Source of the DNA: a virus
IMG/VR virus record: IMGVR_UViG_3300047325_000181
Span: 4,855-68,854 of that record
Strand: one strand, 5' to 3'
Length of the DNA stretch: 64,000 nucleotides
The translations under genes and the position numbers were made by a program. The notes under the pieces are model-generated. The model ran no database searches and was not told the origin of the DNA. It worked only from the letters and a program-made list of their open reading frames with translations. Of this stretch, positions 1 to 60,189 are shown one piece after another (positions within the stretch are counted from its first letter, which is position 1; each line of letters opens with the position of its first letter).

Positions 1-1415
1 TCAGGGTCGGCACCGTCAGCCTCGGCGGCTCGGCGGTGCTCCTCCTGGACCTCGCGGGCGAACCAGGACCTGCGGCCGTCGAGCGCCTCGTACCACGTCA
101 GATGCTCGCCGACGAACTCCATTTGGACCGAGCCTGTTTTACCGTCACGCACCTTACCGACGATGAGCGCGGCGCGCGTCGGCGGGATGACGTCGCCCGA
201 GTCGTCTTTCTTGTCCGGGTCGTTGTCGGGGTTCGCTCGCCAGGGGAAGATGATGGTCGTCGCGTGACCCTCGGCATTCCCGCCGTCGCGTAAGTGGAAC
301 ATGCTCGGCTTTTTGTCGGCCGCGGCCCGGTTCATGTGGAAAACGACGTGCATTGCGCACTTCAATTCGGCGCTGAGCGAGACGAGGTCCATGAGCACCG
401 AGTCGAGCACTGCATGCTTGTTGCCCTTAACCCCGGCGTCCACAAGGTCGCCGATGAATCCGATGTGGTCGATGTGGATAGCTGAGACGCCGGTCCGCGT
501 CGCGGCGAGACGCGCCGCGAGCTTGATTTCGTGAAGCGTCATCCGCGGCGAGCGGTCAAAGAACTGGATAGGGAGCGGTTCGAGATGCGCCTGCGCTCGG
601 TCAAGGAATGTCCGCTCGGTGACGGTCAGCGAGTCGGCCATTCGGAACTTGCCGACCGGCACCCCGGAGACCATCGAGAGAATGCGCTCCGACGTCGCGG
701 CCTCGCCCATTTCGAGCGCGAAGAAGAGCACCTTCCCGTGGCTCGCGCCATACTTGACGGCGTTGTAGTGGGCGAGATTGATTTGCGTGATGCTCTTGCC
801 CATCCCGGGAGCCGCTGCCCATAGCACAAGCTCCCCCGGCTTAAAACCACCCGTCAGCCGGTCAAGCGACGGCCACGGGGTCATAAAGGGCTTCGACGTC
901 CGTGGGTGGTCGATAGCGTATCGGACGCCACGCAGCACCTCGATGTGCTCGTGCCCCTCGATGCTCTTGCGGACCCCGGCTCCGCCGAGAACCTGCTGCG
1001 TGGCCCAATCCGCGAGCGCGGTGGAGTCGACGAACCGTTCGGTCATCGCCGCCTCGTGAAGCTGACGGCCGACCGCGGCGAGCCGCCGGGAAGCGGCCTT
1101 ATCCGCCACGATGCGAGCGTAGTATTCCGCGGTCGTGCTCGTCGGGACGACGTCCATGAGGCTCGTCAGATATGCGATGCCCTCGGCTCCAAACTTCGGG
1201 TCCTTGCGCATCTCTTCGGCAACGGTGATTTTGTCGAGCGGCGCTCCGGCGTCAGCGAGCTTGCACATCACGAGCCAGAGCTTCTCGTGGCTCGGCGAGT
1301 AAAAGTCGCTCGGCTTGAGCAACGGCGCGACGACGTCCCACATCGAGCGGTCAATCATCACGCAGCCGAGGGTCGCCTGTTCAGCTTCGAGGGAGTGCGG
1401 CGGGATGTCGGTCAT
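1..1415 (-). CDS. dnaB: Replicative DNA helicase, DnaB family (runs off window edge)
   Basis: Manual translation: MTDIPPHSLEAEQATLG N-terminus, Walker A AAPGMGKS, FALEM, IHIDHIG, LRDGGNAE, IVGKVRDGKTG. No stop before base 1. ATGA overlap with upstream gene. Confidence 0.95.
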   Translation of the reverse strand, partial: MTDIPPHSLEAEQATLGCVMIDRSMWDVVAPLLKPSDFYSPSHEKLWLVMCKLADAGAPLDKITVAEEMRKDPKFGAEGIAYLTSLMDVVPTSTTAEYYARIVADKAASRRLAAVGRQLHEAAMTERFVDSTALADWATQQVLGGAGVRKSIEGHEHIEVLRGVRYAIDHPRTSKPFMTPWPSLDRLTGGFKPGELVLWAAAPGMGKSITQINLAHYNAVKYGASHGKVLFFALEMGEAATSERILSMVSGVPVGKFRMADSLTVTERTFLDRAQAHLEPLPIQFFDRSPRMTLHEIKLAARLAATRTGVSAIHIDHIGFIGDLVDAGVKGNKHAVLDSVLMDLVSLSAELKCAMHVVFHMNRAAADKKPSMFHLRDGGNAEGHATTIIFPWRANPDNDPDKKDDSGDVIPPTRAALIVGKVRDGKTGSVQMEFVGEHLTWYEALDGRRSWFAREVQEEHRRAAEADGADP

Positions 1416-2317
1416 ATTCCGGTGTCCCGGCTTTCGTAGGTTGCGACCGTGGTCGGTACGAGCGTCATGTCAGTGGTCCCTCCTGGTTTCTTGCGAGGCG
1501 GCAGGGCGAGCTTAACGAGTTCGTCCTGGATGATTTTGAGCATGTACGGCGCCTGTCCAAGTCGCTCTGAGGCGCTTGCGAAGGCGACGAGGATTTCGTC
1601 GTCGGTCCTCCCGAGCGCGGCAAGGTCGCGAGCGGCGGCCTTATTGCGCTGACCCCACTGGGTTCGGGTCATGCCTCGGCCGACGACGGTCTGCACCTTC
1701 GGCCAGAGAAGGGCGAGGATGTCCCGTGCTCGCTGCTCCGTCGGGTCCGGCAACTTCAGAACCGTCGGCTCGCGCTGCCTGGACGAAACGGCCAGGCTAG
1801 AGACGCTAGTCTCTAGCTCTATAGAAGACGAAGATGAAGTAGAAGACGAAGAGTTAACATTTGGCTTAACCGACGCTATAGGCGTCGCTAGTGGCGTCGC
1901 TAGTGGCACCGCTTCGGTTTCGCTAGTAGCGCCGCTAGTGGCGACGCTTCTTTTCCCTCGTGCGGCGGCGCCTTTCTTGCCGTTTTCGCTTTGGGCGCGC
2001 TTATAGGCGATTTGTTGGGCGCGCGTCTCTTCTTGGCGACGGTTGACCAAACGGGTGGCATCGCTTGGGTGTTCGATGAAGCACCGCTTAAGCGACGCCC
2101 ATAGCGGTGCCATCTCTTCGCTAGTGGCGCCGACTAAGCGGGCGCAACGCTCGGCGTCGTTCGGTATCGAACCCTTTTTCCAAGAATGACAAAGAAGCCG
2201 GATATAAGCGCCGCTCTCGGCGAGGCTCATCTCGGCTTGGTCGGAGTCACTCAGGTAGTCACCGGCGTAGAATTGGAACGCGGGACCCCACTCCGTATCG
2301 GCACTTTCAGATGACAA
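1412..2317 (-). CDS. Phage replication initiator-like protein (DUF1376/YdaU type)
   Basis: N-terminal PAFQFYAGDYL..S..EMSLAESGAYIRLLCHSW motif, Ser-rich linker, directly upstream of helicase (lambda O/P-like order). Confidence 0.8.
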   Translation of the reverse strand: MSSESADTEWGPAFQFYAGDYLSDSDQAEMSLAESGAYIRLLCHSWKKGSIPNDAERCARLVGATSEEMAPLWASLKRCFIEHPSDATRLVNRRQEETRAQQIAYKRAQSENGKKGAAARGKRSVATSGATSETEAVPLATPLATPIASVKPNVNSSSSTSSSSSIELETSVSSLAVSSRQREPTVLKLPDPTEQRARDILALLWPKVQTVVGRGMTRTQWGQRNKAAARDLAALGRTDDEILVAFASASERLGQAPYMLKIIQDELVKLALPPRKKPGGTTDMTLVPTTVATYESRDTGI

Positions 2318-2342
2318 AGGAACCTCTTTCTAGGCTCAACTC

Positions 2343-2371
2343 TTGCCACCGCGCTCGTCTCGTGGTAGACT
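2343..2371 (+). promoter_or_regulatory. Sigma70-type promoter, antisense to the replication operon
   Basis: TTGCCA-17 nt-TAGACT with extended -10 TG. Confidence 0.65.
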
Positions 2372-2377
2372 GAAGTC

Positions 2378-2437
2378 GAGCGCTCTTTCCGCTCATTTCA
2401 AGAAAGCTCCCGGGCGGCGAACCCGGGAGCTTTACTG
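2378..2437 (+). ncRNA. Candidate ~60-nt antisense sRNA (OOP-like position)
   Basis: Lies between promoter 2343-2371 and hairpin 2403-2433 followed by T-rich tract; no ORF. Confidence 0.4.
2403..2433. terminator. Intrinsic terminator, possibly bidirectional
   Basis: Perfect 12-bp inverted repeat AAAGCTCCCGGG-N7-CCCGGGAGCTTT. Confidence 0.75.
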
Positions 2438-2459
2438 TATTCCGACCAAGGTCAACTCG

Positions 2460-3311
2460 TCAAGTGGCCGCTGGCTTTTCCTTACCGAGTCGCTCTCCAG
2501 CCGACTCAATGATGGCCGGGACGCTCGACGCGCGTAGCTCGCTCAGTTCATCGACACTCGTCACGCCGTAGGTGGTGAGCGTTGAGGCGAGCGCGGCGTC
2601 GGCAGTTGCTTTCCCGTAACGGTTCGAGACCGCCGAGTACGCCTTGCGGACCGCCTGCTTTTGGTCGGCCGTGATGGAGCCTTTATCACCGCTCAGGACG
2701 GGCGTCTTATCGGTGCGCGCCTTCGTGTTGCCCCCCGGCGTATCGCTCACCGCGATATTGAAGACCGCCTGAAGCGCCTGCTTCTTCGCGGCCGTCAGCG
2801 CTTTCTTGAAGTACGACGTCCCGCCGTAGTCGACGTCGATGCCGATGAAGTCGCCCATCGCCCGCTCGAAGCCCGTCTCGGTGTCGCCGAGCGTGAGGCG
2901 TAGGTTGATTTGCCCCTGCATAACCGCGGCGCCCTTCTGCGTCGAGCCCTCCAGCTTCGTCGCTTCGTGTTTTACGGGCGTGAAGATGATGGCGAGCCCG
3001 GCGTTTGACGCGGCCTCGTTCGCAGCTTCGACGATGTCCTCATCCTTGATGTACGCGAAGCCCTTGTCGTGGCGGCCTGTCGCGCCGAGCTTCCCGATGG
3101 AACGCTGGGCGAGGCTGAGCTTCGCGAAGAACTTCGCCTTGAGCGCGAGGGTCTTCTCGTTCTCCGCGACCATCTCGCGCAGGGCGGCCATCTCGGCCGG
3201 GACCTGGACCTGCGAGGGCGTGATGGGACGGGCCTGGAGGTCGCGCACCCCATTGCGGTAGATGTCGATGGCCTCCCCCGCTTGCGTGATGTCTTCGAGA
3301 CCCGCGCTCAT
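2460..3311 (-). CDS. ERF-family single-strand annealing recombinase
   Basis: GFAYIKDEDIVEAANEA..GL and KALTAAKKQALQAVFNI motifs resemble ERF. Confidence 0.7.
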   Translation of the reverse strand: MSAGLEDITQAGEAIDIYRNGVRDLQARPITPSQVQVPAEMAALREMVAENEKTLALKAKFFAKLSLAQRSIGKLGATGRHDKGFAYIKDEDIVEAANEAASNAGLAIIFTPVKHEATKLEGSTQKGAAVMQGQINLRLTLGDTETGFERAMGDFIGIDVDYGGTSYFKKALTAAKKQALQAVFNIAVSDTPGGNTKARTDKTPVLSGDKGSITADQKQAVRKAYSAVSNRYGKATADAALASTLTTYGVTSVDELSELRASSVPAIIESAGERLGKEKPAAT

Positions 3312-3847
3312 TCCGGCAACTCCGGCGCCCGGCGCTGCACGACGACCTCGATGGGACCGTCGACGTAGCGGAGCGCGCGCGACATGATTTCGGCGAGTGC
3401 GCCGCCGTACTTCTTGGCGTACTTTTTGAGTGCCGCGGCGTCGGTCTTGACTTGCGGCGGCGGCTGGACGACCGAGACCATCTCAGCCCGCTCGTGCGCC
3501 GGGATTTCCGTCAGGAACTCGATTTCCTTGAACGTGAACTCGTTCTTTTCGAGCTTCTTGCTCTGCTTGTACTCGATGACGTAGTCGACGCTCGGGAGCG
3601 CGGTCGCGTTCGCGGCCTGCATGCGCCGGTAGAGTTCGTGCTGGAGCGACTTCTTGTAGAGCGTCGCTTCGTCGATGGCCTTGCGCAGTGAGGCGATGCG
3701 CTCGTCCGAGTAGATGACCTCGTCGGCGATGTCCGCGAGCGGCATATGCTCGAAGATGACATCGACCTCGCCGAGTTCGACGGACTCTCCGGCCCGCGTG
3801 ATGCTGAAGTGTTCGCCCGATTCGGCCGTGATGACCTGAGTATCCAT
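3308..3847 (-). CDS. Coiled-coil protein, possibly Gam/Gp157-like
   Basis: ATG at 3847 with AGGAG Shine-Dalgarno; helical; next to ERF. Confidence 0.5.
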   Translation of the reverse strand: MDTQVITAESGEHFSITRAGESVELGEVDVIFEHMPLADIADEVIYSDERIASLRKAIDEATLYKKSLQHELYRRMQAANATALPSVDYVIEYKQSKKLEKNEFTFKEIEFLTEIPAHERAEMVSVVQPPPQVKTDAAALKKYAKKYGGALAEIMSRALRYVDGPIEVVVQRRAPELPE

Positions 3848-3860
3848 CCTTGCTCCTAGA

Positions 3861-3974
3861 GTGAGGGCCCCCGTGATGAAGCGGGGGCCCTCGGTTGTGG
3901 AGGTAGCGGGGACGGCGGTTCGTGGCCACCGTCCCCCGGAACTGGCCCACCTGTGAGGAGAAGCCCTATTCCGT
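3861..3974 (-). ncRNA. Structured leader / candidate bipartite antisense RNA (c4-like)
   Basis: Two 11-bp GC hairpins (3908-3936 loop CCACGAA; 3863-3892). Box 3946-3962 is complementary to 35852-35868 and 32467-32482 on the late mRNA. Confidence 0.6.
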
Positions 3975-3980
3975 GCGCTG

Positions 3981-4009
3981 ATTGTAGCGCGCTGCTTTGG
4001 GGAAGTCAA
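3981..4009 (-). promoter_or_regulatory. Promoter with operator overlapping -10
   Basis: TTGACT-17-TACAAT; operator CAGCGCGCTA at 3985-3994. Confidence 0.85.
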
Positions 4010-4039
4010 GGGGCCAGCGGAGGAAAGACAAGTCCACGG

Positions 4040-4366
4040 GTGAAGGTCAGTGACGTGGTCGATGACACGCTCTTTTCGCTCGTCGCGAGCGAGGGTGACC
4101 TCATCACGAAGCTGGACCTCCTACGGGCGCCCGGCTACATCGTGCGGACCGAGCTTTCCCGGCCCGGCACCCTCGAAACACGGACCATCCGCGTCGAGCA
4201 GCCCCTCGACCTCGCGCGAACCATCACCGTCCTCGACCGCTACTTATCCCACCAGCAAGTCCTCGAAGTCATGGACGGATTCTCAGGCCTCGGACCCGAG
4301 TTTGCAGCCGCAATCGCAGAACTCAAGCTCCAGAGGTACGGTCTTGTCAGAGCCAGCGGACCCTAA
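4040..4366 (+). CDS. Hypothetical protein
   Basis: GTG start, genome-typical codons. Confidence 0.55.
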   Translation: MKVSDVVDDTLFSLVASEGDLITKLDLLRAPGYIVRTELSRPGTLETRTIRVEQPLDLARTITVLDRYLSHQQVLEVMDGFSGLGPEFAAAIAELKLQRYGLVRASGP

Positions 4367-4544
4367 ACGAAAGCCCCAGATTCGGTGGAAGCCCGAGTAC
4401 GTCGAGTTCCTCCGCAACCAGTATCCCTACCATACGACCGTCGAACTCAGCGAGATGATGGCCGAGACTTTTGACGTGAAGGTCTCGCCTTCGGCTGTCG
4501 GGTTCGTGATTTGGAAATCTCGCATCCCCAAGAAGCCCGCGTGA
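4344..4544 (+). CDS. Small HTH-like protein
   Basis: W.PEYVEFLRNQYPYHTTVELSEMMAETF pattern; TTG start inferred. Confidence 0.5.
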   Translation: MSEPADPKRKPQIRWKPEYVEFLRNQYPYHTTVELSEMMAETFDVKVSPSAVGFVIWKSRIPKKPA

Positions 4545-4903
4545 GGGCTGGCGCTGAAGCCGCCGGAAAGCGACGCCGTGCCGAGGACAAGATGCGCGAG
4601 GCCGCCCGCGGCCGGGACGGCGAGCACTGCCAGATGGAGACAGCCTCCGGCTCTGCTTGGATGGTCTGCAAGCGCCGGGCGACCCAGGCAGCGCACGTCT
4701 ACCGGCGCCGCGAGTGCGGCCGGGCAAAGTACGACCCCGACGTCGTCGTGATGGCTTGCGAGCCGTGCCACCGCTCCTACGACGACGACAGCCGCTACGA
4801 TGTCCGGGTGCGCCCCGAGCACGAGGAGCGGGCCTGGGCGGCCATCATTAAGGCCTCCAAGGTACTGCCGCCCCGCCAGACGCTCACGGGCCAGCGGGCA
4901 TGA
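4541..4903 (+). CDS. HNH-like (NinG/Rap-like) nuclease
   Basis: RDGEHCQ..C..ATQAAHVYRR..ACEPCH; GTGA overlap. Confidence 0.65.
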   Translation: MRAGAEAAGKRRRAEDKMREAARGRDGEHCQMETASGSAWMVCKRRATQAAHVYRRRECGRAKYDPDVVVMACEPCHRSYDDDSRYDVRVRPEHEERAWAAIIKASKVLPPRQTLTGQRA

Positions 4904-5097
4904 GCTTCCGGCAACCCTGGGAAGAGCAGCTTCAGAACATCGTCGACCGGGCTCAGAGGGGAGAGCCGCTCTGTCACATCACCCACATCGGGATGACGTG
5001 CGCTGAGTTCGACGCCTATGTTGCAGAAAAGAACGGAGATGGTATCATTGGGCTCCTCGGTCGAAACCACTATACCGCTCAGCGTCCTGGTCAGTGA
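4900..5097 (+). CDS. Hypothetical protein
   Basis: ATGA overlap, 65 aa. Confidence 0.5.
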   Translation: MSFRQPWEEQLQNIVDRAQRGEPLCHITHIGMTCAEFDAYVAEKNGDGIIGLLGRNHYTAQRPGQ

Positions 5098-7408: not shown

Positions 7409-7462
7409 AGTTTACCACGGGTGGCAATACCCGTTGACATTTACAGCGCGCTGGTGTATAGT
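7409..7462. promoter_or_regulatory. Divergent promoter pair with two palindromes
   Basis: Minus: CGTGGTAAACT then ATG after 7 nt. Plus: TTGACA-17-TATAGT then ATG after 6 nt. ACGGGT-N6-ACCCGT at 7417-7434 and CAGCGCGCTG at 7444-7453. Confidence 0.85.
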
Positions 7463-7468
7463 CGTGGC

Positions 7469-7864
7469 ATGATGGAAAGAAACTTTTCGGAAGTAATCCT
7501 CGACATAGCGCGTGTCTACGGCGAGCTTTCGCCGGAAAACCTCTACCGCGACGGTGAAGCCTCGCCCGCGGAGGTCGCTCGCGAGCGAGCGCGCCTCACC
7601 GAGAAGCTCGAAGCGCTCTTCGCTGAGAGAGGCAGCCCGCTCGAAGAGAACGAGGCATACGAGTTTGCCGCCCGTATCAGAAAGAGGCCCGAATGGAGCG
7701 CCGCTGACCGACTTTCGTGCGAAAGGTTCGAGCCGGGGAACCCCATCGCTCGCGGCAAGTCGCACGAGATGGCCGACGTCGGCCCTTACGAAGAGCCGCA
7801 CTGCATCTTCTGCGGCTGGCAGCGTGACGAAGATGACTACTCGCTGACGGGGTATCGCGGATGA
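7469..7864 (+). CDS. Hypothetical phage early protein
   Basis: LSPENLYRDGEAS motif; leaderless start. Confidence 0.7.
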   Translation: MMERNFSEVILDIARVYGELSPENLYRDGEASPAEVARERARLTEKLEALFAERGSPLEENEAYEFAARIRKRPEWSAADRLSCERFEPGNPIARGKSHEMADVGPYEEPHCIFCGWQRDEDDYSLTGYRG

Positions 7865-19798: not shown

Positions 19799-19827
19799 AT
19801 TGTATACCAGCGCGCTGGAAATGTCAA
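19799..19827 (-). promoter_or_regulatory. Early-type promoter with spacer operator inside tail operon
   Basis: TTGACA-TTTCCAGCGCGCTGGTA-TACAAT. Confidence 0.9.
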
Positions 19828-19844
19828 CCGACCGGGCTCAATCC

Positions 19845-31958: not shown

Positions 31959-32459
31959 TTACTCCCCGGTGTCTGACTCCGCCATTTTGGCAGCCTTCCG
32001 AGCCGCATTCGCGGTTCGCGTGGCGTTCTTCTGCCGAGCGGCTTCGAGCGCGGCTTCCTTCTCTTGCTCGATTTGCTTGGCTCCAGCCGCGGCGCGCGGG
32101 TCGGCCATCGTCTGGTCGCCTTCGGTCGCAGGGAGGAACGGCCCCATATCCTTGACGCCGTACGTGTCGGGCACCGGGATGGCCATGCCAGCCGGGTACC
32201 AGTATTTCGCGTTTCCGGCCTCGGAGGCGCGCTCGTTCTCTTTGCTCTCGACGATGAACGCGGCCTCGGCGGGGGTCATGTAGCACTTCCAGTTACGGAA
32301 CTGCCGGAAGTAGTTGATTTCCTTCGCTTCCTCTTTGCCGTCGATGTTTTCGACACGCCAGCCGCGGCCGACGCGAACCCGCGCCTCGCGGTAACGGGAC
32401 TGAACCAAGACTTTGACGGACGAGCGCTCGGCCGTCTCACGGTCTGATGTTTGTGGCAC
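31959..32459 (-). CDS. Hypothetical late protein
   Basis: GTG start with GAGGAG SD embedded in the conserved box. Confidence 0.65.
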   Translation of the reverse strand: MPQTSDRETAERSSVKVLVQSRYREARVRVGRGWRVENIDGKEEAKEINYFRQFRNWKCYMTPAEAAFIVESKENERASEAGNAKYWYPAGMAIPVPDTYGVKDMGPFLPATEGDQTMADPRAAAGAKQIEQEKEAALEAARQKNATRTANAARKAAKMAESDTGE

Positions 32460-32466
32460 TGAGAAA

Positions 32467-32505
32467 TCTCCTCACAGGTGGGACTTTATTCCGGCCCACG
32501 AAACC
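32467..32505 (-). promoter_or_regulatory. Putative antisense target (boxes B and A) covering RBS of 31959-32459
   Basis: GGTTTCGTGGG..CCCACCTGTGAGGAGA; 16-nt match to 3946-3961. Confidence 0.65.
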
Positions 32506-32543
32506 GGCGAGGTTTGACTTCTTGAGTCAGGGGATAGCGCCTG

Positions 32544-33629
32544 CTAAATCACCATCTGGTTGGCGTACTTCGAGAGCAGCGTCTTGATGATGTTCTCGTC
32601 GTCCTTGTCGATGGCGCCGCCGTACGGTTCAGAGCCGTACGATTCACTCGCTCCGTCGACCGAGAGGCTCGCGAGCCCATTCGAGAGCGAGTACCAGTTC
32701 TGCCGCCGGATGCGATTGGCAACAAGGCGCGCGACGGCCATCGAGACGCCCGCGGGAATCCCCGAGGACCAGTCGATGCCGACCGCAGGCGTTCCGGTAT
32801 CGCCGCCGGTTCCCGGCTTCGTCTGGATGACGAGGCCGTTGCCTGGCGGGTCCGCGGTGCCGGGCGGGTTGAATTGCAGCGGCGTCCCGTCGAGGTAGTT
32901 GATGGGCGGGAACCCGAAACTGTAGTGCGTTTCGATGTTCATGTCGCCGGGCGTGAACGTATAGTTCCAGAGCGGCAGCGACACGCCAGCGTAGAGGACG
33001 CGCGGGGGAATCGTCAGCGTCCGGCGCCGCGTGTCGACCAGGAGGTCGGCGTCCTCGATGCCGGTCGGGTAGATGGGGCCGCTCGCGTTAACCGCGGCCT
33101 CGTAGACGTTGATGGGGAAGGTCTCGGGGCCCGGCGGGAACGGCTCCTGCGACCCGATGGCGAGGAACTCGGAGCCGTCGAGCTTGCGCGGCCGGACGAA
33201 GTGATACCAGACGTTCGACGGCAGGATGCGGATGAAGACCGTTGTCACTTCGAGGATGTTGCGGTCGGGAAGCGTGATGACCGGCCCACCGGAGCCGTCG
33301 AAGAAGCGCACGACATAGCAGAAGTCGTACGGCGAGCGAAGCTCCTTAACGACGAAGTCCGTGACCTCTTGGATGTAGAGGTTGACGAGCGTATTGAAAG
33401 CGTCGAGGGTGCCGTTGCAGTCCAGGAAGTTTTGTAAGTTCGTGCCGAGCAGTACCGACATGACCTGCCGCGGGCTGCAATGCGGGCGCGGGTCTTGGTC
33501 GGTGTAGACCATCCGGGCCGGAATTGTGTACGGCCAGAAGGCCACGCCCGGCTGCTGCGGGATGGGGTTCGGCGGATTGGTGGGCGGATTGCTCGGGTTC
33601 GCGAACACCGGCCCGAAATTAGAACTCAC
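32544..33629 (-). CDS. Head-tail adaptor / neck protein
   Basis: IPAGVSMAVARLV..SLSVDGASESY motif of gp6/gp15-like adaptors. Confidence 0.7.
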   Translation of the reverse strand: MSSNFGPVFANPSNPPTNPPNPIPQQPGVAFWPYTIPARMVYTDQDPRPHCSPRQVMSVLLGTNLQNFLDCNGTLDAFNTLVNLYIQEVTDFVVKELRSPYDFCYVVRFFDGSGGPVITLPDRNILEVTTVFIRILPSNVWYHFVRPRKLDGSEFLAIGSQEPFPPGPETFPINVYEAAVNASGPIYPTGIEDADLLVDTRRRTLTIPPRVLYAGVSLPLWNYTFTPGDMNIETHYSFGFPPINYLDGTPLQFNPPGTADPPGNGLVIQTKPGTGGDTGTPAVGIDWSSGIPAGVSMAVARLVANRIRRQNWYSLSNGLASLSVDGASESYGSEPYGGAIDKDDENIIKTLLSKYANQMVI

Positions 33630-33644
33630 AGGCGCATCCTCACT

Positions 33645-34352
33645 TTAAGAGGGCCATTCGCCAAACGAGTCAATTTCCCGGGGTTTCGCATCGAAGAGCG
33701 AGGGCCCACGTACGGAGGGATGCAGCTTTGCGCCTTGCTTCGAGTTGCACAATTGGCACTGCGCTGCGATATTGAATGCGGCGTTCGAGCCGCCAAGAAC
33801 GAGCGGGCGGAGATGCCCGCGCGTCGGGGCGAGGCCCGGACCAAACTCGCGCTTGCAGTCAATGCAGCGATTCTTCTGGCGCTTCACGATGGCGGCAAAC
33901 TCGGCGGCCGTATGATGCGGACCGAGAGCGCCACGCTTACGGGCTCGGCGACTTGCTTTACTGGCGCGCACCTTATCAGTATTCGCGGCGGCCCAGGCGG
34001 CTCTATTGGCGCGCAGCTTATCAGCATTCGCGGCGGCCCAGGCGGCTGCGCTGGTGCGTTCCTTATCGGGATTCGCGGCCCGCCAGGCGGCTTTGAGGGC
34101 GCGCGCCTTATCGGGATTCGCGGCCCGCCAGGCGGCTGCGCTGGTGCGTTCCTTATCGGGATTCGCGGCCCGCCAGGCGGCTTTGAGGGCGCGCACCTTA
34201 TCGGGATTCGCGGCCCGCCAGGCGGCTGCGCTGGCGTTAGCACAGGGCCTACAGCGAGTCTGGCGCCCGTCGCCTCTGCTCGCATTTCGACCAAACTCTT
34301 CAAGTGACTTCGTCGTGCCGCAGCCTCTGCAACGCTTAGACCCGGTTGGCAT
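33645..34352 (-). CDS. Free-standing HNH endonuclease with tandem 15-aa repeats
   Basis: CRGC..CRPC N-terminus; RCIDC..TRGHLRPLVLGGSN..NIAAQCQLCN; leaderless start. Confidence 0.9.
   Translation of the reverse strand: MPTGSKRCRGCGTTKSLEEFGRNASRGDGRQTRCRPCANASAAAWRAANPDKVRALKAAWRAANPDKERTSAAAWRAANPDKARALKAAWRAANPDKERTSAAAWAAANADKLRANRAAWAAANTDKVRASKASRRARKRGALGPHHTAAEFAAIVKRQKNRCIDCKREFGPGLAPTRGHLRPLVLGGSNAAFNIAAQCQLCNSKQGAKLHPSVRGPSLFDAKPREIDSFGEWPS
33960..34229 (-). repeat. Six tandem 45-bp units (xAAWRAANPDKxRxx) inside HNH gene
   Basis: Direct inspection; two alternating unit types give a 90-bp super-period. Confidence 0.9.
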
Positions 34353-34359
34353 CGCCCCG

Positions 34360-34388
34360 ATGATACCAGACGGCGCCTGATTTCTCAA
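34360..34388 (-). promoter_or_regulatory. Dedicated promoter for HNH 33645-34352
   Basis: TTGAGA-17-TATCAT, ATG 7 nt downstream. Confidence 0.7.
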
Positions 34389-34468
34389 AGGAGGCCCCGA
34401 CCCCGGCTCAAATCGACACGCTGCGCACAGTGAGCCGCTCCCGGGGCAGGGGTTTTGAGGGGGTTCAA

Positions 34469-34693
34469 TTAGGCGGCCGCCGGAGCCTCGCGCTTCCTCT
34501 TCGCGTCCCAGGCCGACTTTGCCGCCCGGTTGCACTCACGGCAGCCCTTCTTTTGGCCTTCGACCCACGGGTGGAGCCCCTTGGCGCAGCGGCTCGGGTC
34601 GGCGCGCTTCGTCGACGGCTTGCCCTTTTTCGCGGCCGACATCTTCGCCTTGGCTTCGGCGGTCCGCTTCTGGCCGAAGTCAAATGATAACAA
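34469..34693 (-). pseudogene. NUMOD3-containing homing endonuclease remnant
   Basis: GQKRTAEAKAKMSAAKKGK (NUMOD3) plus CAKGLH..CREC; no nuclease domain. Confidence 0.55.
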
Positions 34694-34777: not shown

Positions 34778-35845
34778 CTAGTTGTAGACCGGCGTGAGCG
34801 TCGAGTTGACGCCTTCGAGCAGACCCTGGTACTGGGTCACGCCAATCTGGAGCATCGTCGTCTCGTACACGATGCCGCGGTCGGCCGTCGTGATAGATTG
34901 CAGGTCGCGGTAGTGGACCGGGTCCACGTCGACCATCTCGACCACGTTGCCCGAGTTCTTGTCGTCCTGGGTTGCGTCGTCGAGGAAGATGACCCGTTCG
35001 AGGCCCGAGCCGTCGGGAATCATGTACTGGTCGGCGATGAGGTCGACCGAGCCCGTACCGAAATCCCACGTTTCGAGCGCGAAACCGGCCTTGTAGGCGG
35101 TGCCCGAGGACGGGGTCATTTGGCGGATGGCGTACAGCGACCCGAGCATCTGCGTGAGAAGCTCCATGATGGTGTACGACATGATGAGCGCGCGGACGCG
35201 GCCACCGGCGAGCTTGATGGCGAAGCACTGCTGGCGGATTTGCTGGTAGGCGAGCGCGGCGCCGCCTCCGGCCGATACGTCCAGAATGTTGAAGCCGTCT
35301 TGCTGGATTTGCGTGATGAGGCCGTCGAACGCGAGGCCGCCCGTCGCACCGGAGTCGCCGTTGAGGATGAAATACTCCTCGGCGAGACCGACGTTAATCA
35401 TCTTGACGCGCTTTTGCTGCGCGAAGATGTCGATGAAGCTCGCGTCCTGCGCTTCGTCCTGCCACGCCACGATGACCAGGTCACCGATGTTCGAGTAGGG
35501 GCGCGAGACGTACTGGTACTGCGGGTCGATGGACTGCGGAAGGCCGCCCTTCGTGAAGGCCGCTCCCGTCGGGTCCGTGCCCAGATACTTGGTCGTGTTC
35601 TCGGTCAGACCGAGATTCGAGACCAGCTTGTAGAAGGCGTGGGCCTTACCGTTGCCCTTTTTGCGGGACAGGCGGTTGCGAACCGGCGTATCGAGGTTCG
35701 CGGCCAGCTTCAGGTCGTCTTCGAGGTCCTGACGAACCACTTCCAGACCCACGACGGCAGTGTTCGACTTCCGAATCTCGTCGAACTTTTGAAGCTGCCG
35801 GAGGATGGTCTCCGGGTTGAGTAGCTCGCTCGTAATCTTCGCCAC
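34778..35845 (-). CDS. Major capsid protein (HK97 fold)
   Basis: 355 aa after scaffold and protease; AEEYFILNGDS..FDGL motif. Confidence 0.85.
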   Translation of the reverse strand: MAKITSELLNPETILRQLQKFDEIRKSNTAVVGLEVVRQDLEDDLKLAANLDTPVRNRLSRKKGNGKAHAFYKLVSNLGLTENTTKYLGTDPTGAAFTKGGLPQSIDPQYQYVSRPYSNIGDLVIVAWQDEAQDASFIDIFAQQKRVKMINVGLAEEYFILNGDSGATGGLAFDGLITQIQQDGFNILDVSAGGGAALAYQQIRQQCFAIKLAGGRVRALIMSYTIMELLTQMLGSLYAIRQMTPSSGTAYKAGFALETWDFGTGSVDLIADQYMIPDGSGLERVIFLDDATQDDKNSGNVVEMVDVDPVHYRDLQSITTADRGIVYETTMLQIGVTQYQGLLEGVNSTLTPVYN

Positions 35846-35851
35846 GGAAGG

Positions 35852-35908
35852 TTCTCCTCACAGGTGGGACTTGATGCTGGGGAACCCGCTTTGCCCGGCC
35901 ACGAACCG
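35852..35908 (-). promoter_or_regulatory. Putative antisense target (boxes B and A) covering the capsid RBS
   Basis: CGGTTCGTGGCC (12-nt match to 3916-3927) and CCCACCTGTGAGGAGAA (17-nt match to 3946-3962). Confidence 0.7.
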
Positions 35909-35934
35909 AGCGAACGGAGGGGGAAGGTTTGGTG

Positions 35935-36810
35935 CTAGACCCGGACTCCGGCGGCAGCGGCCTGCTTGTAGAGTTCGGCGAGCGCGGTCTCGGCGCGCAT
36001 GATTTCGTTCGAGACTTTGCCCTTGCGCAGATTCTCTTGGTCCGTCAGCGCAATCTTGTTGTTCGCTTTTTCCAGGAACGACGTGCGCTCCTGTTTCAGC
36101 GTTTCGATGCTGGCGCGCAGGTCGGCGGCCATTTTCTTCAGGTCGCCTTCGGCCGTCCCGTCGGAGGTGTTCTCGGTTTTGCCCTTCTCGATGACGGCTC
36201 CGGCCGCGCCTTGACGCGGTTGGATGACCTTCTCGCCACCGGCGATGCGCGCTTCGAGCGCTTTCGCCAAGTCCTCGAACTTGTCGTTGAGCATCTTCTC
36301 GATGGTCGCCTTCGAGACGGCGCCGTTTCCGGCGGCCCGGCGCGCATCGCGCTTCGCGATAGCGGCCTGAGCTTTGGCGAGGTCGCCCGCACGGACGGCC
36401 TTGACGGCTTCGTCCATGTCGTTCATTTCGCCCGATTCGTTGTTCGGGTCGCCGTAGACGTCTTCGTCCGCGAGTCCGGCACCCTTCATAATCATGCCTC
36501 GGCACTTGTCGAGCGCCTGGACGTGGGCTTTCGCCTCGTCGGCCTCGGGCCACTGGCTTTCGCCTTCGCCCACGCTCATGTTCGCTGCGTCGTCGGTGTC
36601 GCCGCCCTCTTCGCCGTAGCCGGACTCGGCGAGGTCTTCCTTGCGGATGACCGCGATGTCGGCATTCTTGGAGAGAACGATGTTCCCGTCCTTATCCTTG
36701 CCGACCACGTCGGCGTCGGACACGACGAAGAACTTGGCGTCGGTCTTGGCCTTGGCAACGGCGTCGGTTTTCGCGAAATCGTTGAGGGCGGAAATCTTCT
36801 TGTTCGGCAC
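35935..36810 (-). CDS. Capsid scaffold-like protein
   Basis: Acidic/coiled-coil, between protease and capsid. Confidence 0.7.
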   Translation of the reverse strand: MPNKKISALNDFAKTDAVAKAKTDAKFFVVSDADVVGKDKDGNIVLSKNADIAVIRKEDLAESGYGEEGGDTDDAANMSVGEGESQWPEADEAKAHVQALDKCRGMIMKGAGLADEDVYGDPNNESGEMNDMDEAVKAVRAGDLAKAQAAIAKRDARRAAGNGAVSKATIEKMLNDKFEDLAKALEARIAGGEKVIQPRQGAAGAVIEKGKTENTSDGTAEGDLKKMAADLRASIETLKQERTSFLEKANNKIALTDQENLRKGKVSNEIMRAETALAELYKQAAAAGVRV

Positions 36811-36821
36811 TGACCGGCTCC

Positions 36822-37412
36822 TTAACTCAGCATGTCGGAGGCTTTAGGCCCGACCATTTGAGCGGCTTTGATGAGGGAGCCCGTGACCCCTGTCCCGATG
36901 CGCCCTGATTTTTCGACCGCGGTGATGACGCACTTCCCGTTTGCCGGAACGTCCACGAGCGAAAGCTCGTCGAGTCGGTACTCGGTGATACGTCGACACT
37001 TCTTTCCGCGCGCATCCTTCGAGGGACCTGCGTCAATGACGCCACCTCCGATGGACGACCCGGTAAGGGTGCCGTCAAGCACCTTCTTCCACGTCGACTC
37101 AGCCCCTTCGGAAATGTGGATGCCGACGTAGACTTTTTTGGCAGCGCGGTCGGCGACGACCTTGATGGCGCGGCCCGCGGCAATCGGCTGGTGCATCTCG
37201 CGGATGTTCCCGTGCCAGCGCTTGAAGGCGCGGACGGTGGCATCGAAGTCGACGATGTCGCCCTGGGAATCGGCGACGGAATCTTCGGACTGGCCGACCA
37301 CCCAAACGGTGCGCGCGGCTTTATCGACCCGGTCGAACTTGAGGAAAATATGGCCCGACCGCAACCCAGCGGCGAGCGACGTCGAGGCAACGGGGGCCGG
37401 GCTAAGATTCAT
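36822..37412 (-). CDS. Prohead protease (HK97/XkdF type)
   Basis: DSQGD..NIREMHQ..LTGSSIGG..ELSLVDVPAN. Confidence 0.85.
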   Translation of the reverse strand: MNLSPAPVASTSLAAGLRSGHIFLKFDRVDKAARTVWVVGQSEDSVADSQGDIVDFDATVRAFKRWHGNIREMHQPIAAGRAIKVVADRAAKKVYVGIHISEGAESTWKKVLDGTLTGSSIGGGVIDAGPSKDARGKKCRRITEYRLDELSLVDVPANGKCVITAVEKSGRIGTGVTGSLIKAAQMVGPKASDMLS

Positions 37413-37737
37413 TTTCCTTGTCTCCGAGGCCGAAACGCTCCATCCCGAGCGCCTTGAGAACGAACGGCACGACTTGCTTCGCGAGGACCGCGGCGTCCGC
37501 TGTCGTCACTTCCACATTCTCGCCGCTGATGACGGCGTAGAGACCGTAGTCTCCGATGTGAATGTCCTTGACGGCCCGGGTGAGTTCCTGGGCGACCTTT
37601 TGGCGCACCTCGGGGTCCGGGTCGAGGATTTTGAAGTGGACGATGATTTTCTGCTCGTCCGGCTTCGTGAGATTAAAAGGGAGGGTGGCTCGCCCCGAGC
37701 GGGGTCCGCCATACCCTCCAATTCGGTCGCCGTTCAC
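37402..37737 (-). CDS. Hypothetical protein
   Basis: Coupled in head operon. Confidence 0.6.
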   Translation of the reverse strand: MNGDRIGGYGGPRSGRATLPFNLTKPDEQKIIVHFKILDPDPEVRQKVAQELTRAVKDIHIGDYGLYAVISGENVEVTTADAAVLAKQVVPFVLKALGMERFGLGDKENES

Positions 37738-38552
37738 TAGGAGGAGAAGTCTTCCACCTGAATCGGCACAATGTCGATGCGCAGCCCGCTCGTCGGCCCC
37801 TTCGCCACTTCGGCGTGGGTCGGGAGCACGTACGATTCGAGCACGTTGCTCCCGTTGTCGACGCAGGTCGCGCTCGGGGCGACGCCCTTGGCGACGAGGT
37901 AGAGCGGGGAGAAGCTCGTTGCGGCGCTGACCGCCACGATGTCGTACGTCAGGAGCGAGTCGATGTGGCCCGAGGGCAACGCCGGAGCGGTGACGGTGAC
38001 ATAGTTCGCGGTCGTAAGCGTGGCCGCCGTGTCGACGACGGTGACCGCGGCTCCCGGAGGCGCGAAGCGGGCCGTGCGGTCGCGACCGGCCGGAGGGCCG
38101 AAGGGCTGGAAGGCCGAGGTCTGAACCGTGCCGCCGCCATACACCGGCGCGACGTTGGCCGTGCCGGGCAGGTTGTTACGCTTTTCGGGCGGCGGACCCG
38201 AGGTGAAGTTCATAAACTGCGGGCTCCCGCCGTTGCCGGGCCCCGGGTTCAGTTCGTAGCGGGGGACCGCCACGTAAAACCGCGAGGTCGTTCCGGCCGT
38301 GCCGGTATAGGCGCCGGTCGGGGTGCCGACGGCTTCCGCGTTTGCGTCCCAAAAGGGGCGAAGCTGAACGCGCAGCACTTGCGCGATTTGCTTGTCGGTG
38401 ATGACGCCGTCGCTAATCAGATTCCAGAGCTTCGTGTTCGAGGCGACCGCGGTCGCTTCGTTCGTCGCCGGGAAGCCCAGGACGCTATCGGCGATGGTGG
38501 TGCTATCCCACTCGGTCGGGAAGTTGCCGGTCGGATTCAGGACGGTCGACAC
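37737..38552 (-). CDS. Probable virion structural protein
   Basis: Beta-rich, head operon. Confidence 0.55.
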   Translation of the reverse strand: MSTVLNPTGNFPTEWDSTTIADSVLGFPATNEATAVASNTKLWNLISDGVITDKQIAQVLRVQLRPFWDANAEAVGTPTGAYTGTAGTTSRFYVAVPRYELNPGPGNGGSPQFMNFTSGPPPEKRNNLPGTANVAPVYGGGTVQTSAFQPFGPPAGRDRTARFAPPGAAVTVVDTAATLTTANYVTVTAPALPSGHIDSLLTYDIVAVSAATSFSPLYLVAKGVAPSATCVDNGSNVLESYVLPTHAEVAKGPTSGLRIDIVPIQVEDFSS

Positions 38553-38613
38553 AGTGCGGAGCCCTCACAGGTATAAGATGAGTCGAACTTCGTCCGGCCC
38601 AGGCGCGGTCCTC

Positions 38614-48425: not shown

Positions 48426-48501
48426 ATGGTAGCATAGCGCCGCCATAAAGTCAAGCGCCCAGGCTAAGCTGCTTGACATTTCCAGCGCGCTAGTGTAGAC
48501 T
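48426..48501. promoter_or_regulatory. Divergent early promoter pair
   Basis: Minus TTGACT-17-TACCAT (48454-48426); plus TTGACA-17-TAGACT (48473-48501) with operator 48483-48492, ATG 6 nt later. Confidence 0.85.
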
Positions 48502-48507
48502 CAAGAC

Positions 48508-49065
48508 ATGAAGAGACGTGACGGAACCGAATGCAACACGACCTGCCAAATCTGCGCCCGGCCCATCCTGGCGAAGACCGGCAAAATCGCGCACCACGGC
48601 TACACCCGCCCCATCTACCGCAGCGGCTGGCAGACGGCCTCGTGCTACGGGGCGCGCAAGCTCCCGTACGAAGTGGACCGCTCGGTCCTGCGCGAGTACC
48701 TCGACCGCTTCATGCACCCGGCCCTCGACCGGACGAACGCGCTGCTCAAGGCGGTACGGGCTGGCGGCCCGGACCTCGAAGTGCCGAACCCGGCCTACGC
48801 TCGCTACCTCGACCGCATCGCGTACTACAAGTATCGGGGCAAGCCGCCGCAGGGCGAGCCGCCGCCGCAAATGCTGAAGTTCGTGGAGCGCCCGCCGGAA
48901 ATCAACGGCCGGTATGACTTCGACAACCCGCAGTGGGCCGCGGCGCGTGAGTACGAGCGGGCGCTAGAGTCCTTCACCTATCAGGTGGAACGCGAGCAGC
49001 AGGCTATCGAGGAGGACGTCGAGCGGCTCGAAGCGCGGTACGACGCCTGGGTGGCCCCGGCTTAG
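48508..49065 (+). CDS. Hypothetical early protein
   Basis: TCQIC..HHGY..SCYG; leaderless. Confidence 0.75.
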   Translation: MKRRDGTECNTTCQICARPILAKTGKIAHHGYTRPIYRSGWQTASCYGARKLPYEVDRSVLREYLDRFMHPALDRTNALLKAVRAGGPDLEVPNPAYARYLDRIAYYKYRGKPPQGEPPPQMLKFVERPPEINGRYDFDNPQWAAAREYERALESFTYQVEREQQAIEEDVERLEARYDAWVAPA

Positions 49066-49074
49066 CCGGGGCCC

Positions 49075-49103
49075 TTGACATTTTTAGCGCGCTAGATTAT
49101 GAT
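49075..49103 (+). promoter_or_regulatory. Early promoter with operator
   Basis: TTGACA-TTTTTAGCGCGCTAGAT-TATGAT. Confidence 0.9.
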
Positions 49104-49119
49104 GATGTCGGAGGTGGAC

Positions 49120-50434: not shown

Positions 50435-50634
50435 GCGAGGACAAAATGTGCCAGGTCGTCCGGTGCGCTCGCCCGGCCGACTGGGCCTGCCACCGGCCGC
50501 GGACCGGGACGCTCATCGGCTACTCGTGCCAGCAGCATCTCGGCGCGCTCGCCCAGCGCCACGCCGCCTTCCACTACGGTCTGGTCATCAAGGCGGTCGG
50601 AGAACTGCCGGACGGCCTCGTGCCCGGCGCTTGA
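50431..50634 (+). CDS. Small Cys-rich protein
   Basis: GTGA overlap. Confidence 0.55.
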   Translation: MSEDKMCQVVRCARPADWACHRPRTGTLIGYSCQQHLGALAQRHAAFHYGLVIKAVGELPDGLVPGA

Positions 50635-50659
50635 CATTTCCAGCGCGCTGGTTTAAGAT
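50631..50659 (+). promoter_or_regulatory. Early promoter with operator
   Basis: TTGACA-TTTCCAGCGCGCTGGTT-TAAGAT. Confidence 0.9.
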
Positions 50660-50677
50660 AAGGATGGAGGTAACGAA

Positions 50678-54839: not shown

Positions 54840-54868
54840 TTGACATTTCCAGCGCGCTAGTTTACACT
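54840..54868 (+). promoter_or_regulatory. Early promoter with operator
   Basis: TTGACA-TTTCCAGCGCGCTAGTT-TACACT. Confidence 0.9.
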
Positions 54869-54888
54869 AGGGCTGGAGGTTGATTTTG

Positions 54889-58635: not shown

Positions 58636-60189
58636 TTGAGGTCTTCGTTTTTGGGCAACTCCCAAACACGTCGCGCGACACCTGAAGAGGTCATGTCCCT
58701 CTTTGAGAAGTGCGGCGATTCTGCGCTCATCGCCAAGAAGTTGGGGCTGAGCCGCAGTCGAGTCAACCGCATCATCGCGGACTACCGGGCCAAGCATGGC
58801 CTGCCGAAAGAGACGATGTACGCGAGCGGCGTCAGTGACGCGGCTCTCCTGCGCGCCCACGATGAAACCGGCCAAGACGTCGCGCTCACCGCGAAAGCCG
58901 TCGGCCTCTCGTATTCGCAAGTTCACCGGCGCCTCACGCGCATCCGGCTGGCAGGCGGCTCCTCGGCTCGCCCGCACATCTTCGAGGCCGACCCGGCAAG
59001 CGACAAGCCGAACCGCGTCGACGGCGTCCGCGAGCGCGCGGGTGTTCCGCTCGATGCCATCCGGCGCGTCACCGGCGGAACGCTGCGCGAGTGGGGCGTG
59101 GCCATCAAGAACAAGGACGGCGAGTTCGAGGAGCACGGGCTCTACGGCACGACCCTCAAGTTCACGGTCGACACGCCCGAGTTTCCGCTCATCCAGCCCG
59201 CGACGCCGACCAAAATCGTCTACAACAAAGTCCCGCGCATCCTGCGCAAAGTGCATCAGGGCCTCATCATCAGCGACGCGCAAATCGGCTACCTGCGCGG
59301 CATCCAGTCCGGCCTGCTCGATACGATTCACGACCCGCGCGCGATGGAAGTGGCCCGGCAAATCACCGGCACCATCGCCCCCGAGTTCCTCGGCTTTATC
59401 GGCGACTGGGTCGACTTCTCGTGGATTTCACGCTGGACGAAGCAGCCCGAGTTCTTCGGCATCGCGCAGCCCTCGATTCAGGCCGGGTACGAGTGGAAGG
59501 CGCGCTTCATCGCCGCGGCACCGCAGAGCGCCCGAAAGATGGAGATAGGCTCGAACCATCAGGTCCGGCCCGACAAGTTCGTCCTCGAATACAATCGCGA
59601 GTCGCTCGGTCTCACGCGCGCGCGACGCCCCGGCGACCAGGGACCAGAGTGGCATGTCTTCTCCGAACAGTTCCTCTGCCGGTACGACGAACTCGGCGTC
59701 GAGTTTAGCGGCCAGTATCCCGGCGGCGAGTTCTTCGTGACGCCGGACCTGGCGCTCATGCATGCGCCTCCGAAGAAGTCCGAGTTCAACGCGAGCGTGA
59801 TTCACGGGCACACCCATAAGCTCGGCAACGCGACGACCCACGTCACGCACGATAACGCCGGACGCCACGAGTACGCGACCTGGGACACGGGATGCCTGTG
59901 CCGGACGGACGCGACGACCGACAAGCGCCGCCTCATGGTCACGGCCGTGCCGTCCGACCGCGGGCGCACCGACTGGCTCCAGGGCATCATCCATTTCGAG
60001 TGGATGGAGTACGGCGGCGGGACCAAGCACCAGATTCACCCGATTCACATTTTCGACGGCCACGCGCTCTATCAGGGCGACAGCTATGACGTGGCCAAAG
60101 ACTTCGACGAGGGCATCCTCGCGAACGGCTACGGGTACGAAACGAAGCCTAGTCGAGTCCCGGTTGCGAGCCCTGCTTCACGCCCGTAA
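58636..60189 (+). CDS. Calcineurin-like metallophosphoesterase with two N-terminal HTH-like domains
   Basis: ISDAQ, GDWVD, GSNH, MH, IHGHTH, TGCLC motifs. Confidence 0.8.
   Translation: MRSSFLGNSQTRRATPEEVMSLFEKCGDSALIAKKLGLSRSRVNRIIADYRAKHGLPKETMYASGVSDAALLRAHDETGQDVALTAKAVGLSYSQVHRRLTRIRLAGGSSARPHIFEADPASDKPNRVDGVRERAGVPLDAIRRVTGGTLREWGVAIKNKDGEFEEHGLYGTTLKFTVDTPEFPLIQPATPTKIVYNKVPRILRKVHQGLIISDAQIGYLRGIQSGLLDTIHDPRAMEVARQITGTIAPEFLGFIGDWVDFSWISRWTKQPEFFGIAQPSIQAGYEWKARFIAAAPQSARKMEIGSNHQVRPDKFVLEYNRESLGLTRARRPGDQGPEWHVFSEQFLCRYDELGVEFSGQYPGGEFFVTPDLALMHAPPKKSEFNASVIHGHTHKLGNATTHVTHDNAGRHEYATWDTGCLCRTDATTDKRRLMVTAVPSDRGRTDWLQGIIHFEWMEYGGGTKHQIHPIHIFDGHALYQGDSYDVAKDFDEGILANGYGYETKPSRVPVASPASRP

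Follow-up and report, generated by a model that had tools for sequence, protein, structure and literature searches.

The genome of the uncultured phage analysed here carries, behind an early-type promoter, a predicted structured leader RNA whose 5'-proximal segment (box A) is an exact antisense copy of the ribosome-binding site of the major capsid gene. The complementarity is far above chance, and in related phages it is kept by compensatory changes on the two sides. The targets lie about 26–32 kb from the leader, in another operon. In every case the Shine-Dalgarno core forms part of the paired segment, and the partner is antisense and sits just past the only promoter in its region. In our opinion, the most economical reading of these sequences is a trans-acting RNA that keeps ribosomes from binding to the mRNAs of head genes. 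We regard it as rather probable that the leader, or a terminated small RNA derived from it, acts as such an anti-ribosome-site RNA and represses head-gene translation or sets a threshold for it.

The window, by which we mean the whole 64-kb stretch of DNA analysed, sits within a 73,308-bp IMG/VR virus record that is about 80% complete; its G+C content is 63%, and near-identical DNA is present in moss and peat metagenomes. The head module is transcribed from the minus strand (Table 1). Sheath-initiator and baseplate genes found in relatives indicate that the window phage is contractile-tailed. No integrase was found in the 73,308-bp record, searches of the phage collection by DNA and by protein returned nothing matching, and the capsid profile run against species genomes found no prophage relatives. 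The minus-strand ORF 33645-34535, located between the capsid and adaptor genes, contains a 45-nt unit repeated head to tail at least six times (33910-34269; copies 64–84% identical to the reference copy), which would give the predicted protein a 15-residue repeat. Close variants of the window occur in four DNA runs, and the leader is identical in all of them, so that they offer no micro-variation. The runs in which the locus was found are all DNA runs, with no RNA run among them. Run X2 (2024), which is coded as a single organism, contains a 97,973-bp contig at a depth of about 159 that is 97% identical to the window. In the comparison with window positions 2400-5000, the differences cluster in the ERF gene (about 5%), and only two changes fall in 3253-4696. 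This contig may represent a complete genome and may point to a culture or a host.

Table 1. Coordinates of the leader, its putative targets and the surrounding genes in the window.
Feature	Position	Strand	Remarks
Sigma70-type promoter TTGACT-17-TACAAT	3981..4009	-	consensus match
Promoter family	7434-7474, 48473-48513, 49075-49115, 50631-50671, 54840-54880	+	palindrome family
Promoter family	19803-19828, 3981-4009	-	palindrome family; at least six near-identical early promoters in the window
Predicted leader or small RNA, ~127 nt	3848..3974	-	three stem-loops; runs to ATG of first gene
Box A, TTCTCCTCACAGGTGGG, 17 nt, anti-ribosome-site segment	3946..3962	-	near 5' end
Stem-loop 1	3908..3936	-	predicted fold; 11 bp, one G.U, loop CCACGAA at 3925-3919
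Box B, 12 nt	3916-3927	-	loop and upper stem of stem-loop 1
Stem-loop 2	3863..3892	-	11 bp, G+C-rich, U tract absent; ends 5 nt before AGGAG (3857-3853) of first gene
Operon behind leader	1412..3847	-	the three genes below
179-aa protein, function not assigned	3308-3847	-	first operon gene
ERF recombinase	2460-3311	-	second operon gene
DUF1376 protein	1412-2317	-	operon gene
Target 1, capsid ribosome site	35852..35868	-	17/17 complement of box A; GAGGAG within motif; GTG start 35845
Target 2, ribosome site of gene 31959-32459	32466..32482	-	16/17 complement of box A, one end mismatch
Target 3, ribosome site of gene 37737-38552	38563..38572	-	10-nt complement of box A core
Small hairpin in capsid 5' leader	35894..35910	-	stem CTCGG/CCGGG, loop TTCGTGG; 12 nt at 35897-35908 complementary to box B
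Portal, MuF		-	head module
Protease	36822-37412	-	head module
Scaffold-like gene	35935-36810	-	head module
Major capsid gene	34778-35845	-	head module; SU10_MCP family in its homologues
Head-tail adaptor	32544-33629	-	head module
Neck and tail genes		-	head module

The leader promoter is the sole promoter-like site in the region 3300-4700, for which 0.1 would be expected. Transcription is predicted to start near 3974, about 7 nt past the -10 element, and the leader adjoins a divergent plus-strand gene starting at 4040. The -10 element is overlapped by the palindrome AGCGCGCT (3986-3993), common to the early-promoter family. The other, near-identical sigma70-type members of this family carry the palindrome CAGCGCGCTG in the spacer, and the whole set has the appearance of a single early regulon under operator control. 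The predicted fold of the leader (-68 kcal/mol, z = -5.8) was equalled by none of 200 shuffled sequences; box A is partly paired in it, in a weak apical hairpin. The first-pass annotation of this DNA had described the promoter, the leader, both boxes and two 11-bp hairpins, and each of them is present at the coordinates given there. No Rfam family matched the leader at the gathering score. Below that threshold, leader positions 3857-3971 (minus strand) resemble the Bradyrhizobiaceae small RNA BjrC80 (22 bits versus a gathering score of 80, E 0.016), the match including an identical UUCCGGGGG-CGG stem base. We rejected an identity with BjrC80, since the leader of the related phage L050 (described below) gives no such match, and the likeness is probably a resemblance between G+C-rich hairpins.

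At both full targets GAGGAG stands 6–7 nt ahead of the GTG start. The box A-type motif occurs in three copies with up to three mismatches in the window, as against 0.11 expected. In the 30-nt regions upstream of 42 late-gene starts, the two leader matches are the only same-strand complements of at least 14 nt in the window, the background of this search being formed by 11–13-mers. The matches reported earlier were reproduced throughout, namely the exact 17-nt complement of box A at the capsid ribosome site, the 16 nt at gene 31959-32459, the 10-nt partial match ahead of gene 37737-38552, and the 12 nt of box B in the capsid leader. The 7-nt core of box B indeed recurs at 32496-32502, where TTCGTGG forms the loop of a hairpin (32491-32507) upstream of target 2. 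The spacers between the two boxes, reported as 18 nt in the leader, 28 nt at the capsid gene and about 13 nt at target 2, were likewise recovered. Cofold net energies are favourable (-15 to -23 kcal/mol, on the diagonal of the leader/target matrix) and poorly specific in G+C-rich DNA, and the matrix was dropped as evidence for being too unspecific.

Targets 1 and 2 share 20 identical nt, and target 2 is evidently a recent copy; it is specific to the window lineage, being absent from the orthologous site in the related phages G002, B and D. One of the earlier arguments calls for correction. The antiparallel order of the boxes had been taken to speak against a simple duplication, but the leader, read on its plus strand, runs colinear with the minus strand upstream of the capsid gene (box B', box A', GTG). 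This is just the order that an inverted DNA duplication would give, and geometry alone is thus compatible with a functionless relic of the capsid ribosome-site cassette, the more so as target 2 demonstrates that the cassette can be copied. The weight against a relic, or against chance, comes from the related phages.

Among 5.8 billion proteins the first gene behind the leader has one homologue (52% identity), encoded by L050 (phage C). The search with the ERF protein returned only the query itself, and the L050 protein found nothing among viral contigs. At the L050 locus the promoter TTGACT-17-TAATAT, with AGCGCGCT in its spacer, is followed by the box CTCTCTCACAAGGTGGG, a hairpin with CACGAA in the loop, a second hairpin without a U tract, the homologous gene and an ERF-like gene. 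The window and L050 leaders fit a common three-hairpin consensus in which 9 of the 26 pairs are changed on both sides. RNAalifold found no structure common to these two and the leaders of phages B and D; only the window/L050 pair gives a consensus.

Contigs for same-genome comparisons were supplied by capsid homologues. Phage B (Logan contig L195, 52,206 bp; capsid 74% identical) was followed 26 kb downstream of its capsid gene, where a promoter TTGACA-18-TACCAT precedes a 155-aa gene and ERF. Twenty-odd nt past the -10 element lies box A GGCACTCCCCTCAC, the exact 14-nt complement of this phage's own capsid ribosome site, the letters of which differ from those of the window. The same box is complementary to 13 nt at the ribosome site of an 85-aa gene, and the loop of the next hairpin holds a second box that is complementary, over 11 nt in each case, to the ribosome sites of two more genes, the scaffold-like and the adaptor-like one. 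Each of these targets matches its own sub-window of the leader better than the targets match one another. In the segment L195 19204-19290 the second box, AGTGACTCCCCCT, occupies the loop of a 9-bp hairpin, after which comes CAACTTTTTGT; the opposite strand carries a 19-codon ORF that has a GAGGGGAG site of its own and overlaps both box A and the promoter. The possibility that the box is the ribosome site of a divergent gene was dismissed, as the opposite strand of the four leader loci holds no consistent ORF after the motif.

In phage D (IMG/VR G004, 52,150 bp; capsid 77% identical) the best same-strand complement of the capsid leader in the whole record is a 13-nt sequence, CCCCTCACAGGCG. It is located 30.6 kb downstream of the capsid gene and 21 nt past a TTGACT-17-TACCAT promoter, ahead of a 171-aa gene and a gene for a DdrB-like annealing protein. 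A further match of the phage D leader, 12 nt long and located at G4 17003, falls within coding sequence and was set aside as chance. All four loci (window, B, D and L050) thus possess exactly one sigma70-like promoter each, with the box core CUCACA 18–27 nt further on and hairpins after it, and in all four the second operon gene encodes a single-strand-annealing protein (ERF in the window, L050 and L195, DdrB-like in G004). The place at the head of a single-strand-annealing recombinase operon has evidently been kept even where the genes were replaced. By eye, a hairpin with a U run after it can be made out ahead of the operon in both B and D; a simple terminator scan called neither.

The motif is missing from relatives whose capsids are 62–64% identical, and no such complement exists in a complete 85-kb relative, which indicates that the system is confined to one clade. 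Pattern scans of viral collections returned just the two relatives already known and chance matches, and a metagenome scan for the bipartite motif gave chance matches only, among the matches listed. In unrelated IMG/VR contigs (L036 and L044) we noted a tandem CACCTGTGAGGAGAC, almost the core of box A', with the copies 8–9 nt apart in an unrelated viral contig.

The specificity of the pairing was measured by comparing every leader with every capsid leader and taking the longest Watson-Crick complement. It amounts to 17 nt for the window, 14 nt for phage B and 13 nt for phage D when leader and target come from the same phage, and to 15 nt for the L050 leader with the G002 target, which derive from different samples. 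Cross-phage pairs give 6–12 nt, and shuffled leaders a mean of 6.6 nt with maxima of 10–12. The covariation in related phages that the first-pass annotation had proposed to look for is present, the complementarity being kept by compensatory change in both B and D. Between the window and phage D, two U-A pairs are replaced by C-G. With the help of G.U, 16 nt of pairing can still form between the window leader and the D target, whereas the D leader on the window target meets C.A mismatches and is limited to 9 nt. Such an asymmetry is characteristic of RNA helices and is as expected of RNA pairing. In G002 an extra T is found in both the capsid site and the target-3 site (CCTTGTGAG), and the L050 leader has the matching extra A, which results in 15 Watson-Crick pairs plus one G.U; with the two sequences drawn from different samples and not from one genome, the agreement is suggestive only. 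RNA pairing predicts that the leader box of the relative G001 should be of the CCTCTCACAGGTGGG type and that of G002 of the extra-A CACAAGG form.

The comparative data, not the geometry, are what shows selection here. Although the leader and its flanks have wholly diverged among the window, B and D, complementarity persists at one and the same place in different letters, and the chance expectation for a match at that place is at most 1e-4 per genome. A relic of duplication or a chance match is accordingly disfavoured, and we give it next to no credence.

The same data bear on two further readings. Box A could serve as a cis-acting anti-Shine-Dalgarno element for the first gene of its own operon, the match to head genes being just shared ribosome-site sequence. 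The CUCCU of box A can pair with the operon AGGAG, and any anti-Shine-Dalgarno-like box would match ribosome sites to some extent. However, box A matches its own operon's site over 5 nt only, as against 13–17 nt for the capsid site in three genomes; in none of the predicted folds is box A paired with the site downstream, and the extension past the Shine-Dalgarno (CACAGGTGGG and variants) follows the capsid leader and not the adjacent gene. We consider such a cis role very improbable. Alternatively, the boxes could be double-stranded DNA sites for one phage protein, e.g., a late regulator, acting in either orientation, with RNA complementarity as a by-product. Inverted identical motifs that co-vary among genomes are also what a shared protein site would produce, and the leader copy does lie in a divergent promoter region. 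On the other hand, the motif includes the Shine-Dalgarno at 6–7 nt from in-operon start codons and varies with it (GAGGAG versus GAGGGGAG), the extent of the match differs from target to target with the leader representing their union, and the spacing between boxes is inconstant. Furthermore, box B lies in hairpin loops with co-varying stems, the G.U asymmetry between the window and D fits poorly with a protein site, and in 4 of 4 loci the leader copy is antisense to the targets and directly downstream of the sole promoter. Protein-binding sites appear improbable in the light of these features, and we return to RNA pairing as the preferred reading.

The role of the second box is more restricted. 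The hairpin upstream of the capsid gene keeps its stem by two-sided changes in the window, G001 and G002 (GAGGT/ACCTC and CCGGT/ACCGG in the relatives), while the loop stays (T/G)TCGTG. As a capsid-leader partner in relatives, box B is represented by a 7-mer in B and by 6-mers in D, which is the chance level. Hence, of the bipartite design claimed at first, the part that stands is that two boxes match the capsid leader in the window; in B the second box fits other ribosome sites instead, and D offers 6-mers only. To judge from these alignments, the second box as a capsid partner is convincing in the window lineage only and is not conserved.

The direction of control deserves separate consideration, as the same pairing could work in reverse. 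Abundant late head mRNAs might shut off the leader of the recombination/replication operon by occlusion, RNase III cleavage or co-degradation, providing a late-phase off-switch or one arm of a mutual switch, and both effects may coexist. In the window and L050, boxes A and B are within the 5' untranslated region of the operon mRNA, hairpin 2 of the window has no U tract and directly precedes the operon AGGAG, and the place at the recombinase-operon head is conserved despite gene replacement, all of which is in keeping with a regulated leader. Against it, the segment of the late mRNA that would pair is its own ribosome site, which would be blocked anyway, and box A is about 100 nt from the ribosome site of the operon. 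Moreover, the hairpin and U run ahead of the operon in B and D suggest a separate small RNA in these phages. We regard control in this reversed direction as unlikely, if a little less so than protein-binding sites. As for the window and L050, the RNA may be active as an mRNA leader or once it has been processed.

Taking the trans-acting anti-ribosome-site RNA as the favoured explanation, the following course of events can be envisaged. The early, host-type promoter would yield a structured RNA of about 110–130 nt, which would serve as the 5' leader of the recombination/replication operon or be released from it as a terminated small RNA. Box A, near the 5' end of this RNA, would act in trans, pairing with the major capsid mRNA at its Shine-Dalgarno region and likewise with a few further mRNAs of the head module. 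The loop of the box B hairpin might, in the window lineage, first 'kiss' the complementary loop upstream of the same ribosome sites. Pairing over the ribosome site, 6–7 nt from the start codon, would block 30S binding, and head proteins would appear only when late mRNA exceeds the RNA, which would create a timer or threshold between replication and head assembly. As the RNA arises from an early-type promoter, head-protein synthesis would be expected to be delayed relative to replication and recombination. We infer the existence of the RNA, its pairing in vivo and repression as the sign of the effect from the sequences described above.

Several known systems resemble parts of this scheme. In c4 of P1/P7 and the CI RNA of P4, a small structured leader RNA exposes short boxes, two separated ones in c4, that pair with a ribosome-site region; the targets sit just downstream on the same transcript and control immunity genes, and processing from the leader by RNase P, with a tRNA-like fold, is a further mark of the family. 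The window RNA is similar in being a leader-derived structured RNA with boxes complementary to a ribosome-site region (box A 17/17, box B 12/12). It differs in having several head-gene targets in another operon, upstream in transcription order, and a predicted fold of three simple hairpins, as well as in matching no Rfam model; a search for C4 found no match in 3700-4100 at E<=10 and none window-wide at the gathering score. The description 'c4-like', applied by the first-pass annotation, is consequently apt for an anti-ribosome-site RNA in the general sense and fails as a statement of descent. In phage T4, ribosome sites of late genes are occluded in early transcripts (reviewed in PMC3014915). 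The genes concerned are e, soc and 49, and the complementary segment is found immediately upstream on the same transcript. The likeness lies in temporal control by hiding a late ribosome site, which is achieved in cis in T4 and, as proposed here, by a separate RNA in the window phage. The timing of phage late genes is usually attributed to transcription factors. If our reading is true, control would gain a post-transcriptional layer, in which an RNA acting in trans directly gates how the capsid and neighbouring head genes are translated. Being mutually poorly compatible, the boxes of the window, B and D would also constitute naturally orthogonal RNA/target pairs, attractive as programmable repressors.

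Some traits of generic trans-encoded small RNAs are likewise present, namely a promoter in 4 of 4 loci and a seed complementary to several ribosome sites that is kept with compensatory change. Bacterial and prophage small RNAs (RybB/OmrA type; phage VpdS, PreS and 24B_1; PMC12197685) share with the window RNA a promoter of their own, a 5' seed, several ribosome-site targets and the expected threshold behaviour. The seed matches described here are much longer (13–17 nt, perfect) and are directed at head genes of the phage itself. The review of small RNAs from phages (PMC12197685) lists none against capsid or structural genes, and the capsid is unmentioned in it.

Of the sequence features described so far, the SAS/ESAS of Cluster K mycobacteriophages comes nearest. 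It is a private asymmetric motif of 13–17 nt with a Shine-Dalgarno core, placed 3–7 nt ahead of the start codon in a subset of genes. At about half of the sites, an inverted repeat with a variable spacer lies just upstream. Nearly all of the 15–20 copies (consensus GGGATAGGAGCCC), which precede non-structural genes, point the same way, and only one copy is on the opposite strand. The window motif conforms in its position relative to the start codon (6–7 nt) and in the upstream inverted repeat, with hairpins 13–31 nt upstream at targets 1 and 2 and in relatives, the stems of which co-vary; its sequence is different, CCCACCTGTGAGGAGAA and variants. The SAS/ESAS motifs also differ in that no partner RNA has been proposed or shown for them, and they belong to an unrelated host and phage group. 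In phage Anaya (JF704106; L226 39871-39883, record 59870-59882) this one reverse SAS copy comes after a terminator, in the non-coding gap of 385 nt that separates gp96 from gp97. Read on the rightward strand it is a 12/13 complement of the SAS at 15 ribosome sites, which is the layout of box A in the window, and this copy offers a lead to a possible partner-RNA locus. We tentatively suggest, as a possibility that we would not yet favour, an 'address code' in which one early RNA and a private extension of the Shine-Dalgarno define a head-gene translational regulon, which genes may join or leave through a portable hairpin-plus-ribosome-site cassette, as target 2 might have done; such a code would explain SAS/ESAS. 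For private start-associated motifs of this kind, catalogued since 2011 in hundreds of mycobacteriophages without explanation, a trans-acting RNA, if true, would supply a concrete mechanism.
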